Of a DNA stretch of 56,323 bases, positions 815-5,936 are shown piece by piece (the first letter of the stretch is position 1; every line of letters starts with the position of its first letter). The position numbers and the translations under genes are program-made. The notes under the pieces are model-generated. The model worked only from the letters and a program-made list of their open reading frames with translations, made no database searches and was not told the DNA's origin. The DNA is from Deltaproteobacteria bacterium GWC2_65_14 (GTDB lineage Bacteria > Desulfobacterota > Deferrimicrobia > Deferrimicrobiales > Deferrimicrobiaceae), in contig MGPV01000012.1 of the NCBI GenBank assembly GCA_001797615.1, positions 1 through 56,323 of the forward strand. Reading direction: 5' to 3'.

Positions 815-843
815 GCGTGAAGTCACAATTTGTGACTTCACGC
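815..843. repeat. Palindrome copy 1 of the TCRCAA-T-TTGYGA family
   Basis: GCGTGAAGTCACAA-T-TTGTGACTTCACGC, perfect 14-bp arms, overlapping the hicB stop codon. Confidence 0.95.
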
Positions 844-1266
844 CATTTCGACGATTAATTTCTTGCCGACGGCATCAGCCAACTTCGACAGTTGTTTGAG
901 CGTGGGATTGGCGACCTTTGGGTTTTCCCATGCCTGGTAGGACTGGTACGTGATGCGAAGGCGGCGTGCCACCTCTTTTTGGCTCAGTCCCAATTCAGTA
1001 CGAATTTTTCGAATCATCAAAGCGATACATACCTGGGGACTGGGCTCGACCCAGCGAACGTTTTTCCCCTTCAGGGACTTCGCTTCGGGAATCGAAAAAT
1101 TGCGTTCAAAGCGCACCGCAAGCCACCCGGAAAGAGCGTCTTTCGCCATTTTCAGAAGCTCTTCTTCCGTGTCTCCCTCGGTAACGCAACCGGGAAGACC
1201 GGGAAACTCCGCCCAGTATCCTCCTTCTTCGGCTTTGTGGATTTTGAGGGGATATGCAATTTTCAT
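838..1266 (-). CDS. hicB: HicB-family antitoxin with C-terminal XRE HTH
   Basis: YPLKIHKAEEGGYWAEFPGLPGCVTEGDTEEE (HicB fold) plus IRKIRTELGLSQKEVARRL (HTH); overlaps the hicA stop. Confidence 0.92.
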   Translation of the reverse strand: MKIAYPLKIHKAEEGGYWAEFPGLPGCVTEGDTEEELLKMAKDALSGWLAVRFERNFSIPEAKSLKGKNVRWVEPSPQVCIALMIRKIRTELGLSQKEVARRLRITYQSYQAWENPKVANPTLKQLSKLADAVGKKLIVEMA

Positions 1267-1442
1267 TTCAGGCCACCCAGCTTTCGGAGTGCTTCCAATG
1301 TTCCTTTCTTCAGATCTTTCTTCCCGTGTACCGGTACCGATATCGTCCTTGTTCCTTTTACGAGAATGTGATGGGAACCTTCTATCCGGTCCTCAACCCA
1401 TCCGGCGGCCTTCAGTATTCTGACGAGCTCCTTGCCCGTCAT
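1263..1442 (-). CDS. hicA: HicA-family mRNA interferase toxin (59 aa)
   Basis: MTGKELVRILKAAGWVEDRIEGSHHIL...VPVHGKKDLKKGTL with the GSH motif; true start is ATG 1442, since the longer track start lies upstream of the promoter. Confidence 0.92.
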   Translation of the reverse strand: MTGKELVRILKAAGWVEDRIEGSHHILVKGTRTISVPVHGKKDLKKGTLEALRKLGGLK

Positions 1443-1448
1443 ACCTGA

Positions 1449-1477
1449 AGGATACAGGCTATAACCTGTATTGTCAA
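1449..1477 (-). promoter_or_regulatory. Sigma70 promoter of hicAB with overlapping operator
   Basis: Minus strand TTGACA(1477-1472)-N17-TATCCT(1454-1449), then 6 nt and ATG 1442; inverted repeat ATACAGG-N6-CCTGTAT at 1452-1471. Confidence 0.85.
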
Positions 1478-1517
1478 TTCCCGGCCGAAATTCATACAAG
1501 TCCTTTCCGGCGAGGGT

Positions 1518-2087
1518 TCAGAACCCGATCCGCCGACCTGGAATCCTGGGCGGTTCCATGAGCGCCCGGATCGCGTCGAAGACCACGCGAAATTGGGCGT
1601 CATACGTTCCTTCGAGCGCGTCCACCTTTCGTGCCAGTTCCTCGTGGGATACGAGCATGCGCCGCATCCGGACAAACGCGCGCATGATGGCGATGTTGAC
1701 TTGCACGGCGCGCGGGCTGTTGAGGACACCCGATAGCATGGCAACGCCTTGCTCCGTGAAGGCAAAAGGCAAATATTTCCGATACTTGCCTCGTCCGGGC
1801 CTCTCTAAGGTCACAATTTGTGACCTTAGAGAATGGGCTTCGTCCCGCGAGAGTTGGAACATAAAATCTACCGGGAATCGTTCCGCGTTCCGTCTGACAG
1901 CCTGATTAAAGACCTTTGTCGGCACCCTGTACAATCCCGCCAGGTCCGCATCCAGCATTACACGATGACCACGAATTATATGAATTCGTTGAGAAATATC
2001 CTCCGCCCGAATGGGTGGCTTTGATATCGCAATTTGCGATTTCAAATCGGCGCTCATGCCGGATTGCTCATCAATTCTCGTGCCCAT
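1518..2087 (-). CDS. ORF6N-domain DNA-binding protein (start 2087 or 2057)
   Basis: [19 protein letters not shown]...[20 protein letters not shown]...LRSQIVTL...[35 protein letters not shown]; ends in RRIGF. Confidence 0.93.
1802..1832. repeat. Palindrome copy 2, inside the ORF6N CDS
   Basis: TCTCTAAGGTCACAA-T-TTGTGACCTTAGAGA, perfect 15-bp arms; encodes [10 protein letters not shown]. Confidence 0.95.
2021..2045. repeat. Palindrome copy 3, in the 5' part of ORF6N
   Basis: TTGATATCGCAA-T-TTGCGATTTCAA, 12-bp arms with 1 mismatch; encodes LKSQIAIS. Confidence 0.9.
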
Positions 2088-2121
2088 TGGCTCCGGACGT
2101 CACGAAAACAATGAGGTTTTT

Positions 2122-2146
2122 TTGAGGTCACAATTTGCGACCTCAA
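2122..2146. repeat. Palindrome copy 4, upstream of ORF6N
   Basis: TTGAGGTCACAA-T-TTGCGACCTCAA, 12-bp arms with 1 mismatch. Confidence 0.9.
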
Positions 2147-2225: not shown

Positions 2226-2246
2226 CTGATGGCGATTCGCCATCAG
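2226..2246. repeat. Perfect inverted repeat in the ORF6N/WYL divergent region
   Basis: CTGATGGCGA-T-TCGCCATCAG (10-bp arms). Confidence 0.85.
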
Positions 2247-2297: not shown

Positions 2298-2332
2298 ATG
2301 CGACAGGGACTGTCGCATCCTCCCCGTATCCT
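2298..2332 (+). promoter_or_regulatory. Putative WYL-regulator binding site followed by a -10 element
   Basis: ATGCGAC-N7-GTCGCAT at 2298-2318 (arms extend to 9 bp), with TATCCT at 2327-2332; resembles the DriD box as I recall it (ATACGAC-N7-GTCGTAT). Confidence 0.65.
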
Positions 2333-2396
2333 GACCCAAAAGACGGGGGGGCAGCGGATGCCGCCGCGACGGAGGCCATTGGAACAGGGAAAACTC

Positions 2397-2558
2397 ATGG
2401 CCGTGACGCTTGTGTGCCTCTCCTGCCGGGAGGAGCGGGTGATCCACGTTCCGCGCGAACGGGGCGCGAAGGGAAGGGCGTACTGGGAGTGCTTCGAGTG
2501 CCAGGGCCCCGGAGCGCGCTCCCAAAGGGGCGGATCAAAGGGCCTCGGGAAAGATTAA
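2397..2558 (+). CDS. Small Cys4 (CxxC...CxxC) putative zinc-ribbon protein, 53 aa
   Basis: MAVTLVCLSCREERVIHVPRERGAKGRAYWECFECQG...; purine-rich sequence upstream of the ATG; directly upstream of the WYL gene. Confidence 0.6.
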   Translation: MAVTLVCLSCREERVIHVPRERGAKGRAYWECFECQGPGARSQRGGSKGLGKD

Positions 2559-2669
2559 GGAAATGGCAAAGCGCGATCGAAGCCGGCGGATTCGGCGGAT
2601 GTACCTTCCCGGGGGGATGCGATACATTCGTGGAGTCGGCAGTCAGACAAGTTTGCGCGGAGGGGCGCG

Positions 2670-3668
2670 ATGGCCAAGACCAGGAGATCCTGGTCCGGGG
2701 GGGCGAAGCGGCGGACCAAGCCCCGCCCCATGACCAAGCCGGCCATGATGGACTGGGCGCTTCGGCTCCTGCGGCTCCTGAACGAGCGGAAGGTCCTCAC
2801 CTCGCGGGTCGTGGCCGAGGAGTTCGGCGTGAACATCCGGACGGCCCAGCGGTACCTCCTGTACCTTTCCGCCCTGCCGTGCGTTATCGCGGACGAGGAA
2901 AAGCACAGCTACACGCTCACATCGGACTACGTGGTGAGCGACAAGATCCTGAACGTCTCCGAGATGTCGCTGGTGTGCGCCCTGATCGACTACGCGGTCC
3001 ACATCTTCGGCCCCGAGCACTCCAAATTCCTCACGTCGCTCAAGAACCGGATCTTCCGGATGCCCGACGTCTACCGGATCGTCAAGGACGAGGCGATCGA
3101 CATGGAGAAGGTGGCGGCCGTCCAGCTCGACCTGGAGCGGCACATCAAGAACCGCGAGGTGATCTCCTTCGGCTACCGCAAGTCCGGCAAGCGCTACACG
3201 GTGGAGCCGTACCGGATCCTCTACGCGGGCGGGTTCTGGTACCTTGCGGCGCGGCACGACGGGATGCTGAAGAAATTCCTGCTCGACATGATCGAGGGGG
3301 TGCGGCCCGCGGGGAGGAGCTACGCGGAAGTCCCCGATCCGATCCGCCAAGCCCTGGCCGAGGCGCAGACCGCCTGGTTCCACGACGCCCCGCCCGACCG
3401 GGTGACGGTGGAGTTCGACGCGGAGGTCGCCCACTTCTTCGAGCGGAAGCTCTTCTTCCCCCGCCAGGAGATCGTGGAGCGGAAGGGAAACGGCAACCTC
3501 GTCCTGGCCTTCGACGCCCACAACGAGATGGACCTGCGCGAGCACCTCGCGCGCTGGATGCCGTACTTCCGGGTCATCTCCCCGGACCGATATCGGGAGT
3601 ATGTAGCCCATGTGGCAGGGGAGTGTGCGGGGAAGAACCGGGAGCAGGTCACCTATCCCTCGACTTGA
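2670..3668 (+). CDS. wHTH-WYL-WCX transcriptional regulator
   Basis: GGAGG RBS; HTH LTSRVVAEEFGVNIRTAQRYL; WYL core VEPYRILYAGGFWYLAA; C-terminal LREHLARWMPYFRVISP. Confidence 0.92.
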   Translation: MAKTRRSWSGGAKRRTKPRPMTKPAMMDWALRLLRLLNERKVLTSRVVAEEFGVNIRTAQRYLLYLSALPCVIADEEKHSYTLTSDYVVSDKILNVSEMSLVCALIDYAVHIFGPEHSKFLTSLKNRIFRMPDVYRIVKDEAIDMEKVAAVQLDLERHIKNREVISFGYRKSGKRYTVEPYRILYAGGFWYLAARHDGMLKKFLLDMIEGVRPAGRSYAEVPDPIRQALAEAQTAWFHDAPPDRVTVEFDAEVAHFFERKLFFPRQEIVERKGNGNLVLAFDAHNEMDLREHLARWMPYFRVISPDRYREYVAHVAGECAGKNREQVTYPST

Positions 3669-3716
3669 TGCGAGGGCAGTGATTCAATATGGGGGACCGG
3701 GCAGCGGAGGGGTTTC

Positions 3717-4049
3717 ATGAAGTGCGATTTGGATAAACTTATTTCACGGATTCTTGAATTCCGGGATCGGCGCAACTGGGCCCAGTTCCACAACCCCAAA
3801 GACCTGGCCCTCGGGCTTTCCGTCGAAGCCGCCGAGCTCAACGAACAGTTCCTGTGGAAAAAACCGGAGGACGCTGATCCGAAGCGGGTTCGGGAAGAAC
3901 TGGCCGACGTGCTCATATTCGCCCTGATGCTCCTCGAGAAGTACAAGCTCGACTTCGAGGAAATCGTCCTCGAAAAGCTTGCGGCTAACGAGGAAAAATA
4001 TCCGGTGGACAAGGCCCGCAACCGCGCAGCGAAATATACCGACCTCTGA
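3717..4049 (+). CDS. MazG-like (all-alpha) nucleotide pyrophosphohydrolase
   Basis: FRDRRNWAQFHNPKDLALGLSVEAAELNE...EELADVLIF...KLAANEEKYP. Confidence 0.92.
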   Translation: MKCDLDKLISRILEFRDRRNWAQFHNPKDLALGLSVEAAELNEQFLWKKPEDADPKRVREELADVLIFALMLLEKYKLDFEEIVLEKLAANEEKYPVDKARNRAAKYTDL

Positions 4050-4052
4050 CGA

Positions 4053-5936
4053 ATGAGACTCTACGCCGGCACCTCGGGACAGTTCGTCGAAGACACGGTC
4101 CTGAACCAGATCGCCGGCAAGCTCAGGAATGCCTTCTTCGGTCATTACCGGTACAACCCGCCCCAGGCCGAAGTCCATTCGTGGCAGAACTCTCTCCGGG
4201 CCATGGCCGGGATACTCCAATACGGAGAACTGCTGGACCATGGAGTCATGCTCGAGTACCAGCTTCCTCTCACCTCCCGTCGTCTCGATTTCATGGTCAC
4301 CGGAAAGGGGCAGAGCAACGCCGACAACGCGGTGATCGTCGAGCTCAAGCAGTGGGAGAAGTGCGGCCCTGCGGACGGGGAGAACGAGGTTGCCACATTC
4401 GTTGGGGGAACGACGCGGGAGGTCCTGCATCCGTCGGCGCAGGTAGGACGCTACCGGATGTACCTGTCGGATACCCATACGGCATTCCACGAGGGAAATG
4501 ACCCTGTGTCCCTTGCGGCATGCGCCTATCTCCACAACTATCCCCATGATCCCGATGATGTTCTGTACGATACGAAGTTTGAAGGCGTGCTGAGAAGCGA
4601 TCCGATTTTCACCATGGATGATGCTCCGGCACTCATGGGCTATCTGCAGGAGAGGCTTTGTTCCGGCCGGGGCATGGAGGTCCTGAAGCGGGTCGAAGAA
4701 AGCCGTTACCGGCCCAGCCGAAAGTTGATGGAGCACGTGGGGCAGGTCATCAACGGAAATTCCCGGTATGTCCTCCTGGATGAGCAGGTCGTCGCGTACG
4801 ACAAAGTGCGCGCGTTGGCGAAGAAGGGGTTCCATGACAGGCGCAAGACCGCCATCATCATCAAGGGAGGCCCCGGGACCGGCAAATCGGTGATCGCCAT
4901 CAAGCTCATGGCGGACCTGCTGCTGAACAGCTACAACGCCCACTATGCCACGGGGTCGAGGGCATTCACGGAGACGCTCCGGAACATCATCGGGAACCGG
5001 GGAGCCGTGCAGTTCAAGTACTTCAACAGCTATTCGGCCGCCCAGGCCGATGAGATCGATGTCCTGATCGCGGATGAGTCTCACCGCATCCGCAAGACCA
5101 GCGCCAGCCGCTTCACTGCCTCGGCAGATCGCTCCGACCTCGAGCAAATAGGGGAACTGTTGCGGGCCGCCAAAGTGTGCGTTTTCCTGATCGACGACGT
5201 CCAGGTAGTGCGGCCGAACGAAATCGGCTCCGTGGAGTATATCCGGCGGCACGCGCAGGCGATGAAATGCAGCATCTTCGAATACGAGCTCGAGGCACAG
5301 TTCCGCTGCAGCGGATCGGACGCCTTCGTGAACTGGATAGACAATACCCTAGGCATCCGGCGCACGGTCAACGTCCTGTGGGAAGGGAACGAGTCCTTCG
5401 ACTTCGAGATCTTCGATTCACCCCAGGCGCTTGAGGGAGCCATCCGGGACAAAGCCGCTCAGGGTTACACGGCCCGGATGAGCGCCGGCTTCTGTTGGCA
5501 ATGGTCGAAGCCCAGGCCGGACGGGACCCTGGTGGAGGACGTGGCGATCGGCGATTACCTGCGGCCCTGGAACGCAAGGCCGGAGGCATCCCGGCTGGCG
5601 AAGGGAATTCCCAAAGCATCGCTGTGGGCCCATCAGCCGGGGGGCATCGATCAGATCGGCTGTATCTACACGGCGCAAGGTTTCGAGTTCGATTTCGTGG
5701 GCGTCATATTCGGTGCGGACCTGATCTACAGGTTCGACCGGCAGGAGTGGGTCGGGGACAGACGTCAGTCGTACGATACCGTTGTGAAGAGATCCGGAGA
5801 CAAATTCGTCAACCTGGTAAAAAACACCTACAGGGTCCTTCTTTCAAGGGGTATGAAGGGGTGTTACGTTCATTTCCTCGACAGGGAAACAGAGAACTTT
5901 TTCAGGAGCCGGATGGAGACGGGGAATCGTCCGTAG
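4053..5936 (+). CDS. DUF2075-family protein: PD-(D/E)xK-like nuclease fused to a P-loop helicase (Schlafen group-3 helicase type)
   Basis: LEYQLPLTSRRLDFMV...IVELKQW; Walker A GGPGTGKS; Walker B LIADESHR; GCIYTAQGFEFD; NTYRVLLSRG. Confidence 0.9.
   Translation: MRLYAGTSGQFVEDTVLNQIAGKLRNAFFGHYRYNPPQAEVHSWQNSLRAMAGILQYGELLDHGVMLEYQLPLTSRRLDFMVTGKGQSNADNAVIVELKQWEKCGPADGENEVATFVGGTTREVLHPSAQVGRYRMYLSDTHTAFHEGNDPVSLAACAYLHNYPHDPDDVLYDTKFEGVLRSDPIFTMDDAPALMGYLQERLCSGRGMEVLKRVEESRYRPSRKLMEHVGQVINGNSRYVLLDEQVVAYDKVRALAKKGFHDRRKTAIIIKGGPGTGKSVIAIKLMADLLLNSYNAHYATGSRAFTETLRNIIGNRGAVQFKYFNSYSAAQADEIDVLIADESHRIRKTSASRFTASADRSDLEQIGELLRAAKVCVFLIDDVQVVRPNEIGSVEYIRRHAQAMKCSIFEYELEAQFRCSGSDAFVNWIDNTLGIRRTVNVLWEGNESFDFEIFDSPQALEGAIRDKAAQGYTARMSAGFCWQWSKPRPDGTLVEDVAIGDYLRPWNARPEASRLAKGIPKASLWAHQPGGIDQIGCIYTAQGFEFDFVGVIFGADLIYRFDRQEWVGDRRQSYDTVVKRSGDKFVNLVKNTYRVLLSRGMKGCYVHFLDRETENFFRSRMETGNRP

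Follow-up and report, generated by a model that had tools for sequence, protein, structure and literature searches.

A palindromic DNA element inside ORF6N genes and its covariation with the predicted recognition helix of the encoded protein

Palindromic sites within and beside genes

The dyad-symmetric sites of the phage lambda O protein, which are the iterons of ori-lambda, lie inside gene O and are translated into a flexible segment of the protein, and the specificities of O proteins and of their sites change together among the lambdoid phages. A similar arrangement is probable in ORF6N genes. The ORF6N gene of a 56,323-base stretch of contig MGPV01000012.1 from Deltaproteobacteria bacterium GWC2_65_14 (the window, by which the whole stretch analysed is meant) contains a palindrome that recurs at one codon position across the ORF6N family, is under selection for DNA symmetry and not for the encoded peptide, and co-varies with the predicted recognition helix of the protein. 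ORF6N resembles lambda O as a presumed DNA-binding protein with dyad-symmetric sites in its own coding sequence. However, the four iterons of lambda O make up a replication origin, whereas ORF6N genes hold one site, rarely two, with no sign of replication. ORF6N further differs by having flanking copies of the site and by a two-frame reading of the element across subfamilies. A protein search with the window ORF6N returned at least 8000 homologues; members of this family occur in phages, plasmids, integrative elements and defence islands and are without a known target or mechanism. The palindrome provides a candidate DNA target for the whole family.

Palindromic sites inside genes have also been described in bacteria. 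In Bacillus subtilis, a parS site lies inside spo0J, the gene of its own binder, and an operator of PurR lies inside purB, where binding of the repressor blocks elongation and so acts as a transcription roadblock. These are single cases, whereas the ORF6N site is family-wide, fixed in position, overrides codons and amino acids and has undergone repeated specificity switches. Together with its dominance in two reading frames, these properties make the ORF6N element distinct from the lambda O, spo0J and purB precedents. No paper was found that ties ORF6N or KilA-N-type proteins to a palindrome, nor one with a relevant mention of these sequences.

The window protein matches three models of PDC-S05, a candidate single-gene defence family listed in PADLOC (E = 8.5e-55, 1.5e-51 and 4.7e-36), and PHROG 4792, annotated as 'anti-repressor'. 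Its neighbours, which encode WYL, MazG-like, SLFN-type helicase, HNH, NUDIX and toxin-antitoxin proteins, add to the likeness with PDC-S05. One PDC-S05 gene is reported to lower the plating of T7 and T5 about 1000-fold in E. coli B (bioRxiv 10.1101/2024.09.26.614923). The tested member is described with a Virulence_RhuM domain, whereas PF10543 is the only Pfam domain of the window protein. Neither a mechanism nor a cis element was found described in the PDC-S05 literature, and the palindrome makes the mechanism of this family directly testable.

Other classes of palindromic DNA share single features with the element. Rickettsia palindromic elements, about 100-150 bp long, are inserted in frame in many unrelated protein genes. 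As in ORF6N, palindromic DNA is translated there as a passenger peptide in a permissive part of the protein; however, it has no link to the function of the host protein, whereas the ORF6N element is confined to one family and one position and co-varies with a helix. REP elements lie outside genes in tens to hundreds of copies per genome, bear a GTAG or CGTC tag and are associated with a Y1 HUH transposase. REP/RAYT systems resemble the present locus in that short palindromes flank the gene of a protein thought to act on them (PMC3733652). In the window, all copies in the 56 kb lie at the ORF6N locus, no tag is present, and ORF6N is the only Pfam domain of the protein. Integron attC sites are imperfect palindromes of 57-141 nt with RYYYAAC and GTTRRRY cores, arrayed beside intI. 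The sites here span 25-31 nt around a CAA-W-TTG centre with no intI nearby, and the integrases of some related loci adjoin repeated tRNA fragments. Intrinsic terminators consist of a GC-rich stem and a T run behind it, and a scan for them reported none of the five palindromes of the window; an Rfam scan of positions 600-2500 at E ≤ 1 gave no match. Two properties of a dimeric helix-turn-helix operator are present, namely a half-site spacing of about one helical turn and covariation between recognition helix and bases.

Palindromes of the window and of the ORF6N family

The core TCRCAATTTGYGA starts at positions 823, 1811, 2027 and 2128 and has no further copy in the window, against a chance expectation of zero (100 dinucleotide-preserving shuffles). 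These four palindromes (P1-P4; Table 1) share the consensus TCRCAA-T-TTGYGA and the same orientation, as the sequence-only reading had described, and the centre is T on the plus strand in all four. A generic scan of the whole window for odd-centred palindromes found seven, compared with 0.6 in shuffles, and five of the seven lie within 815-2246. P2 translates on the minus strand to ORF6N residues 76-85, its centre at 1817 being the first base of the codon for I81. P3 translates to DLKSQIAIS, which is codons 4-12 when numbered from the conserved start at 2057. The centre of P4 lies 77 nt upstream of the ORF6N start codon, and P1 covers the stop codon of hicB (838-840). The fifth palindrome, Pal0, has another core; it lies about 100 nt upstream of P4 and was absent from the earlier list. 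Pal0 is found at the same place in three close relatives of the locus (L081, L082 and L084), where a compensatory change gives GATGGAGA..TCTCCATC, and a copy with one mismatch, GATGTCGA..TCGCCATC, is present in L237. Folded as single-stranded DNA, the palindromes reach energies between -8.9 and -15.5 kcal/mol (z-scores from -4 to -8). The G+C content is 0.48-0.55 across about 800-2300 and 0.60-0.70 on both sides.

The palindrome is a property of the whole ORF6N family and not of the window locus. Eighty loci from Planctomycetota, Nitrospirota, Chloroflexota, Desulfobacterota, Acidobacteriota, Omnitrophota, Patescibacteria, a Methanobacteriaceae bin and others were examined, and all except L044 carry it at the same codon position (at 3223 in L050); counted by gene, this holds for 79 of 81 genes from many phyla. 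The in-gene palindrome is also present in 22 viral contigs (38-65% protein identity) and on plasmids of cultured Legionella pneumophila, Bacteroides ovatus, Butyrivibrio proteoclasticus, Treponema saccharophilum, Sulfuricurvum kujiense and Segatella copri. The Butyrivibrio gene has identical arms at -29 and within the gene. The core is altered in the most distant members (TCGAAA-A-TTTCGA, ATCAAAA-A-ATTTGAT) with its symmetry kept, and the element persists in proteins down to about 35% identity. Some ORF6N genes even hold two different palindromes, both in frame and in the same loop, at a distance of 42-75 nt, as in L111 (1448-1506) and likewise in L022, L033, L039, L078, L155 and L215.

A metagenome scan for GGTCRCAAWTTGYGACC, which was independent of the protein, gave 132 occurrences on 120 contigs. 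Such copies lie within an ORF6N reading frame in 88 cases and at most 300 bp from an ORF6N gene in 22, or 110 of 132 together. The remainder consists of one copy at 912 bp from ORF6N, six at a contig edge and 15 without a detected ORF6N, some of which adjoin decayed ORF6N remnants. The positions cluster at -150 to +30 from the start, at +240 to +270, where the in-gene site lies, and at 9-130 nt past the stop. Extragenic copies that were retrieved by the 11-nt core alone show pairing well over expectation out to ±13.

Selection on the element acts on DNA symmetry and not on the peptide. In an ungapped 49-nt alignment of 80 genes, 82.7% of the cells are paired, compared with 69.4% in shuffles and 29-43% when the partners are slid by one to three columns. 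Double-sided changes number 227 against 90 in shuffles, and none of 500 shuffles reaches 227. The pairs are almost exclusively Watson-Crick ones, G.U being almost absent. Pair ±4 is A.T in 44 genes, C.G in 17 and G.C in 16; pair ±10 is G.C in 51 and A.T in 27, with one other standard pair and one non-pair. When codons were resampled with the peptide and the codon usage of each gene held fixed, 4.5 of 12 pairs were expected, whereas 11.4 are observed, with p ≤ 0.05 in every gene. The encoded peptide itself varies (SQIVT, SQIAT, SQFAT, FQIGI, CQFGT, YHFGT, LQIAT), and its flanks change jointly (L..S, L..L, W..SN, M..AS, N..GS). In 19 of 192 genes the centre falls on codon position 2 (frame 2, as opposed to frame 1), and VANCD, VTNCD or VPIWH stands at the aligned place.

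Because the covariation, the codon resampling, the variable peptide, the use of two frames and the in-frame double copies all point the same way, the selection is placed at the DNA level, which bears out what the sequence-only reading had proposed from the window. That reading also took LRSQIVTL for a family-typical peptide. P2 and P3 do encode ORF6N residues, but the 'conserved peptide motif' is the translation of a conserved DNA element and not a conserved motif of the protein. The element is a clear case of a cis-acting DNA signal that dictates such a motif, even in two frames, and it cautions that Pfam-style motifs can be translated DNA signals.

Covariation with the predicted recognition helix and its explanation

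The window ORF6N protein scores 109.3 bits against PF10543 (cut-off 27.8), and the match extends over residues 34-121 of the 189-aa frame and positions 2-86 of the 86 in the profile. An AlphaFold model of modest confidence (mean pLDDT 65) has a helix at 36-43, a turn and a helix at 47-56, which together form a predicted helix-turn-helix, and long C-terminal helices. The left arm of P2 corresponds to the end of helix 71-80 and its right arm to residues 81-93, where the pLDDT is below 50; the peptide encoded by P3 is the low-confidence N-terminus. A PDB sequence search gave no match. With Foldseek, the only matches were weak ones to MarR-type and Ski-DHD winged helices, none of them a nuclease or recombinase fold.

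Palindromes can be called A-, G- or C-type according to whether the base pair at ±4 from the centre is A.T, G.C or C.G. Among 117 non-identical frame-1 proteins, mutual information with base pair ±4 peaks at column 49 (0.71) and column 52 (0.77) of the predicted recognition helix, aside from columns 79 and 82, which are encoded by the same bases. In columns 54-78, which separate the helix from the palindrome, it never exceeds 0.17, and these low values rule out a co-inherited block. Genes with the core TCACAA have A.T at ±4 and Gln52 (69/69), those with TCGCAA have G.C and Glu52 (31/33, with Arg49 in 32/33), and those with TTCCAA or TGCCAA have C.G and Lys52 or Arg52 (13/15). All five Lys52 genes carry TTCCAA/TTGGAA, and Arg52 genes have either the arm TGCCAA or its partner TTGGCA. 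Of the 87 Lys48 genes, 85 have G.C at ±7. Base pairs ±4, ±5 and ±7 co-vary in this way with residues 52, 49 and 48. The in-gene palindrome P2 of the window is A-type, which matches Q52 of the window protein. These correspondences yield a candidate recognition code (Gln, Glu or Lys/Arg at 52 and Arg at 49 against ±4) that is testable by a two-residue swap.

The coupling between helix and palindrome does not depend on the remainder of the protein sequence. A tree based on the other protein columns shows 36 changes of the palindrome state, 34 of residue 52 and only 37 of the two combined. Of 16 tight clusters, six contain more than one type, and the code is obeyed by all members in four of these six, the only exceptions being L235 and L188. 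Furthermore, 16 of 17 frame-2 genes obey the code, although the bases concerned encode other residues there. This favours readout of the DNA over a contact within the protein. Gln-Ade, Arg-Gua, Glu-Cyt and Lys/Arg-Gua are classical residue-base pairs. The co-varying blocks have centres about 11 bp apart with the AT-rich centre CAA-W-TTG between them, and this spacing is the geometry of a dimeric helix-turn-helix operator.

On balance, the palindromes are probably ORF6N's own dimeric operators, one of which is embedded in its gene. We infer physical binding, the dimeric state and the regulatory outcome as follows. An ORF6N homodimer, held together by its long C-terminal helices, would bind the dyad-symmetric sites; the helix-turn-helix would read base pairs ±4 to ±7 through two major grooves separated by one helical turn, with the AT-rich centre separating the half-sites. 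One obligatory site would lie in the coding sequence, where the end of helix 71-80 runs into a low-confidence, insertion-tolerant loop, and at this site the DNA requirement would set the codons and even the amino acids. Optional sites would lie in the 5' region and just 3' of ORF6N or of a cargo gene. Such an arrangement would likely provide self-contained control through a transcription roadblock at the in-gene site and/or looping between sites. This control would move with the gene on transfer, which would suit a horizontally mobile, PADLOC-listed family of defence candidates.

Several points weigh against the operator explanation. Flanking copies match the type of the adjacent protein no better than chance. 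Upstream copies next to Gln52 proteins are A.T in 10 cases and G.C in 7, and those next to Glu52 proteins are A.T in 4 and G.C in 3. In the window, a Q-type protein stands beside the G-type P3 and the hybrid P4 as well as the A-type P2 and P1; the sites of one locus do not all match the specificity of its protein. The suggestion of the sequence-only reading that ORF6N binds sites within its own gene is strengthened at the in-gene site, where the bases at ±4, ±5 and ±7 follow residues 52, 49 and 48, but not at the flanking copies, which depart from the code. The outer pairs ±10 and ±13 are also almost perfectly symmetric, matching ±4 in strictness. Only residues 88-94 co-vary with these outer pairs, and since they adjoin the palindrome, this may reflect linkage. 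Perfect symmetry would equally suit the formation of hairpins or cruciforms. The chemistry by which residues are paired with bases here follows a general rule, and the structural model is modest, with weak winged-helix matches as its nearest folds.

If the palindromes are operators, ORF6N proteins could in addition form 'immunity groups', in which ORF6N binds the operator in its own gene and in incoming ORF6N genes of the same type and roadblocks their expression. We consider this extension doubtful. If it held, the roadblock could not be mutated away without altering the gene, and the coupled switches of residues 49/52 and base pair ±4 between A, G and C types would be escapes from cross-repression. 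Flanking sites of another type would then wire paralogues into a cross-regulatory or exclusion network. Should PDC-S05 work by the same route, its target would be such palindromes in invading DNA.

A different explanation is that the palindromes form DNA hairpins or cruciforms and serve as sites of recombination, breakage or gene conversion that shuffle ORF6N modules and cargo, with ORF6N or a host enzyme recognising the structure and not the sequence. Symmetry that is near-perfect everywhere and made of Watson-Crick pairs only, an AT-rich centre that favours extrusion, and the stability of the single-stranded hairpins would all be accounted for in this way. So would two observations that also weigh against the operator explanation, namely that palindrome types occur at swapped positions in related loci and that a truncated second gene copy in L186 begins exactly at a palindrome. 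The in-frame double copies and the hybrid arms of P4 fit as well, as do the differences in downstream cargo (hicAB here, a 276-293 aa protein in L235 and L237) and the end of similarity between the window and L081, L082 and L084 about 9 nt past P1. However, the PDB sequence search and Foldseek gave no recombinase or nuclease signature for ORF6N, no empty site or junction was found, and the endpoints of the hicAB gap in the relatives are not at palindromes. In addition, a pure structure model does not predict the code of residues 52, 49 and 48. Such structures are thus an unlikely substitute for binding, and a hairpin, cruciform or recombination role alongside binding is possible.

RNA hairpins in the ORF6N transcript, acting on mRNA stability, RNase III processing or translation, are improbable. 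The stems are long, and the 5' coding, in-gene and 3' copies would all be transcribed if the promoter lay far enough upstream. However, G.U pairs are not tolerated: the mismatches on the sense strand at pairs 2-13 comprise 6 G.T and 22 A.C, and the excess of A.C is mostly at pair 7, where Thr is fixed. Rfam gave no match, the sites are not terminator-like, and, in the clade of the window, transcription from the conserved promoter-like element 13 nt upstream of the ATG would not include P4 and Pal0. A helix-turn-helix that reads bases also fits duplex DNA better than A-form RNA.

Also improbable are functionless quasi-palindromes that are kept symmetric by template-switch 'correction', with the link to residues 49 and 52 arising from a contact within the protein. 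Quasi-palindrome correction is a known mutational process, and because the bases in question also determine residue 82 (V, A or G), a packing compensation with residue 52 is conceivable. On the other hand, frame-2 genes follow the code with other residues encoded at these bases, extragenic copies stay conserved amid flanks that do not, the element is retained across phyla and down to about 35% protein identity, and 110 of 132 copies are tied to ORF6N genes.

Finally, it is very improbable that the sites serve as operators of some other locus or host protein, such as HicB, which has a helix-turn-helix domain and whose stop codon is overlapped by P1, or the WYL regulator, because nearly all palindrome-bearing loci lack hicAB, the promoter-like site of hicAB has its own, different inverted repeat, and neighbours differ in every locus with ORF6N alone constant.

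The local unit, hicAB and neighbouring genes

The window contains one ORF6N gene only. All genes of the 815-2246 region are on the minus strand in the order ORF6N, hicA and hicB (Table 1).

Table 1. Palindromes, genes and promoter-like elements at the ORF6N locus of the window
Feature	Position	Strand	Description
P1, downstream palindrome	815-843		GCGTGAAGTCACAA-T-TTGTGACTTCACGC, 14+1+14, perfect, A-type
P2, in-gene palindrome	1802-1832		TCTCTAAGGTCACAA-T-TTGTGACCTTAGAGA, 15+1+15, perfect, A-type
P3	2020-2046		13+1+13, one mismatch, G-type (TCGCAA/TTGCGA)
P4, upstream palindrome	2122-2146		12+1+12, one mismatch, hybrid arms: one A-type, one G-type
Pal0, fifth palindrome	2226-2246		CTGATGGCGA-T-TCGCCATCAG, different core
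ORF6N gene	1518-2057	-	179 aa from the conserved ATG at 2057; open frame reaches up to ATG 2087
Predicted recognition helix codons	1890-1919	-	residues 47-56; K48, V49 and Q52 in the window protein
GGCAC-N5-TTGA element	2071-2085	-	13 nt upstream of the ATG; sigma-54 -24/-12-like, candidate promoter
hicAB sigma-70-like promoter	1449-1477	-	TTGACA-17-TATCCT, 10/12 matches
hicA toxin	1263-1442	-	PF07927, 65.3 bits; between ORF6N and P1
hicB antitoxin	838-1266	-	HicB_lk_antitox PF15919, 40.7 bits, and HTH_3, 46.8 bits
Small zinc-ribbon ORF	2298-2558		
WYL/WCX regulator	2670-3668		
MazG-like gene	3717-4049		
SLFN-type/DUF2075 helicase	4053-5936		AbiO, Nhi and PDC-S41 matches; followed by HNH and NUDIX genes

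The layout of the window recurs in close relatives, namely L081 and L082 (encoding P0001, 80% identity to the window protein), L084 (P0011, 81%) and L083 (P0026, 81%). Upstream of the gene, only the palindromes and the GGCAC-N5-TTGA element are conserved among the close relatives. This element is kept in the window, L081 and L083; at the same place L084 has GGCAC-N5-TTCA, and L237 has TGGCAT-N5-TTGA. A promoter at this position would give a nearly leaderless ORF6N mRNA, and no Shine-Dalgarno sequence is evident ahead of the gene. In L081, Pal0 is followed by a further degenerate site, P4, a site some 35 nt ahead of the ATG with no counterpart in the window, P3, P2 and P1. P1, P3 and P4 are conserved in the relatives and their flanks diverge, P1 being invariant in L081, L082 and L084. 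P1 was considered as the remnant of a second ORF6N gene, and this was rejected as there is no ORF6N similarity outside the palindrome. Its arms are identical to those of the in-gene palindrome of a viral subfamily.

The adjacent hicA and hicB genes are a HicAB type II toxin-antitoxin pair, and an inverted repeat, ATACAGGCTA/TAACCTGTAT (1452-1471), overlaps their promoter-like site and is likely the HicB operator. L081 and L082 lack window positions 917-1479, a stretch that comprises the promoter-like site, hicA and hicB codons 1-116; the gap begins at 1479/1480, just upstream of the -35 hexamer. They retain the last 26 hicB codons and P1 at 91% identity, compared with 78% for ORF6N. A hicAB pair accompanies ORF6N here and in L012, where it lies upstream of ORF6N, with remnants in L081 and L082, and in no other locus. 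A role of hicAB as the partner of the palindromes was rejected, given its absence from nearly all loci that bear them. The pair is clade-specific cargo, and the constant unit is ORF6N with its palindromes.

The outer of the four first-listed copies do bracket hicB, hicA and ORF6N, as the sequence-only reading had noted, and it had gone on to suggest a mobile ORF6N-toxin-antitoxin cassette bounded at 829 and 2134. This part did not stand. The hicAB pair occurs with ORF6N in this clade only and has its own promoter-like site, L081, L082 and L084 are without most of hicAB yet keep P1, and the unit extends to 2246. No empty site or circle junction was found; the search for an empty site, made by way of the adjacent WYL gene, returned only two assemblies of the same arrangement and a 1.4-kb contig with WYL only.

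Next to the P1 end, a terminator-like hairpin on the minus strand (801-816) consists of GCGGTCGGGGGGCCGC and a T-rich tail directly after P1, and could be the end of the hicB transcript. Further on, a TfoX_N gene (545-800) is broken, with profile positions 1-32 in one frame and 64-88 in another; its middle third is missing and the frame is shifted.

The surroundings of ORF6N differ among loci, neighbouring genes being different in every one and ORF6N the sole constant gene. L235 (1-2100) and L237 (1-2185) contain tandem units, with Pal0, P4, P3 and a gene with P2, after which come a 276-293 aa gene without a Pfam match, a palindrome and the start of a second unit. An integrase/HTH_17/AAA_25 element follows ORF6N in L227, L229 and L230, and the downstream genes of L228 differ. 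In L227, L228, L231 and L232, ORF6N (protein P0081) lies between two direct repeats of about 90 nt. The L227 repeats (2349-2438 and 3100-3186) read as tRNA 3' fragments with a terminator, are att-like and are specific to L227; repeats of this type look like tandem integration at a tRNA site. A tRNA scan of the related loci found no genes. In the window, 2298-5936 and beyond looks like a defence island. The window itself lies in a 64.6-kb groundwater metagenome contig, in which a ParE toxin gene is located just upstream of the window.

Two plasmid contexts of palindrome-bearing ORF6N genes deserve mention. On pTS1 of Treponema saccharophilum (L248, 1471-2367), the gene is inside a type I restriction-modification operon, between the methyltransferase gene, which is followed by a small winged helix-turn-helix gene, and the specificity subunit gene. 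The Segatella copri plasmids L243 and L251, of 4.1 and 3.0 kb, have a replication initiator and ORF6N as their only annotated genes; their ORF6N carries a frame-2 palindrome, and these very small plasmids would be convenient for experiments.

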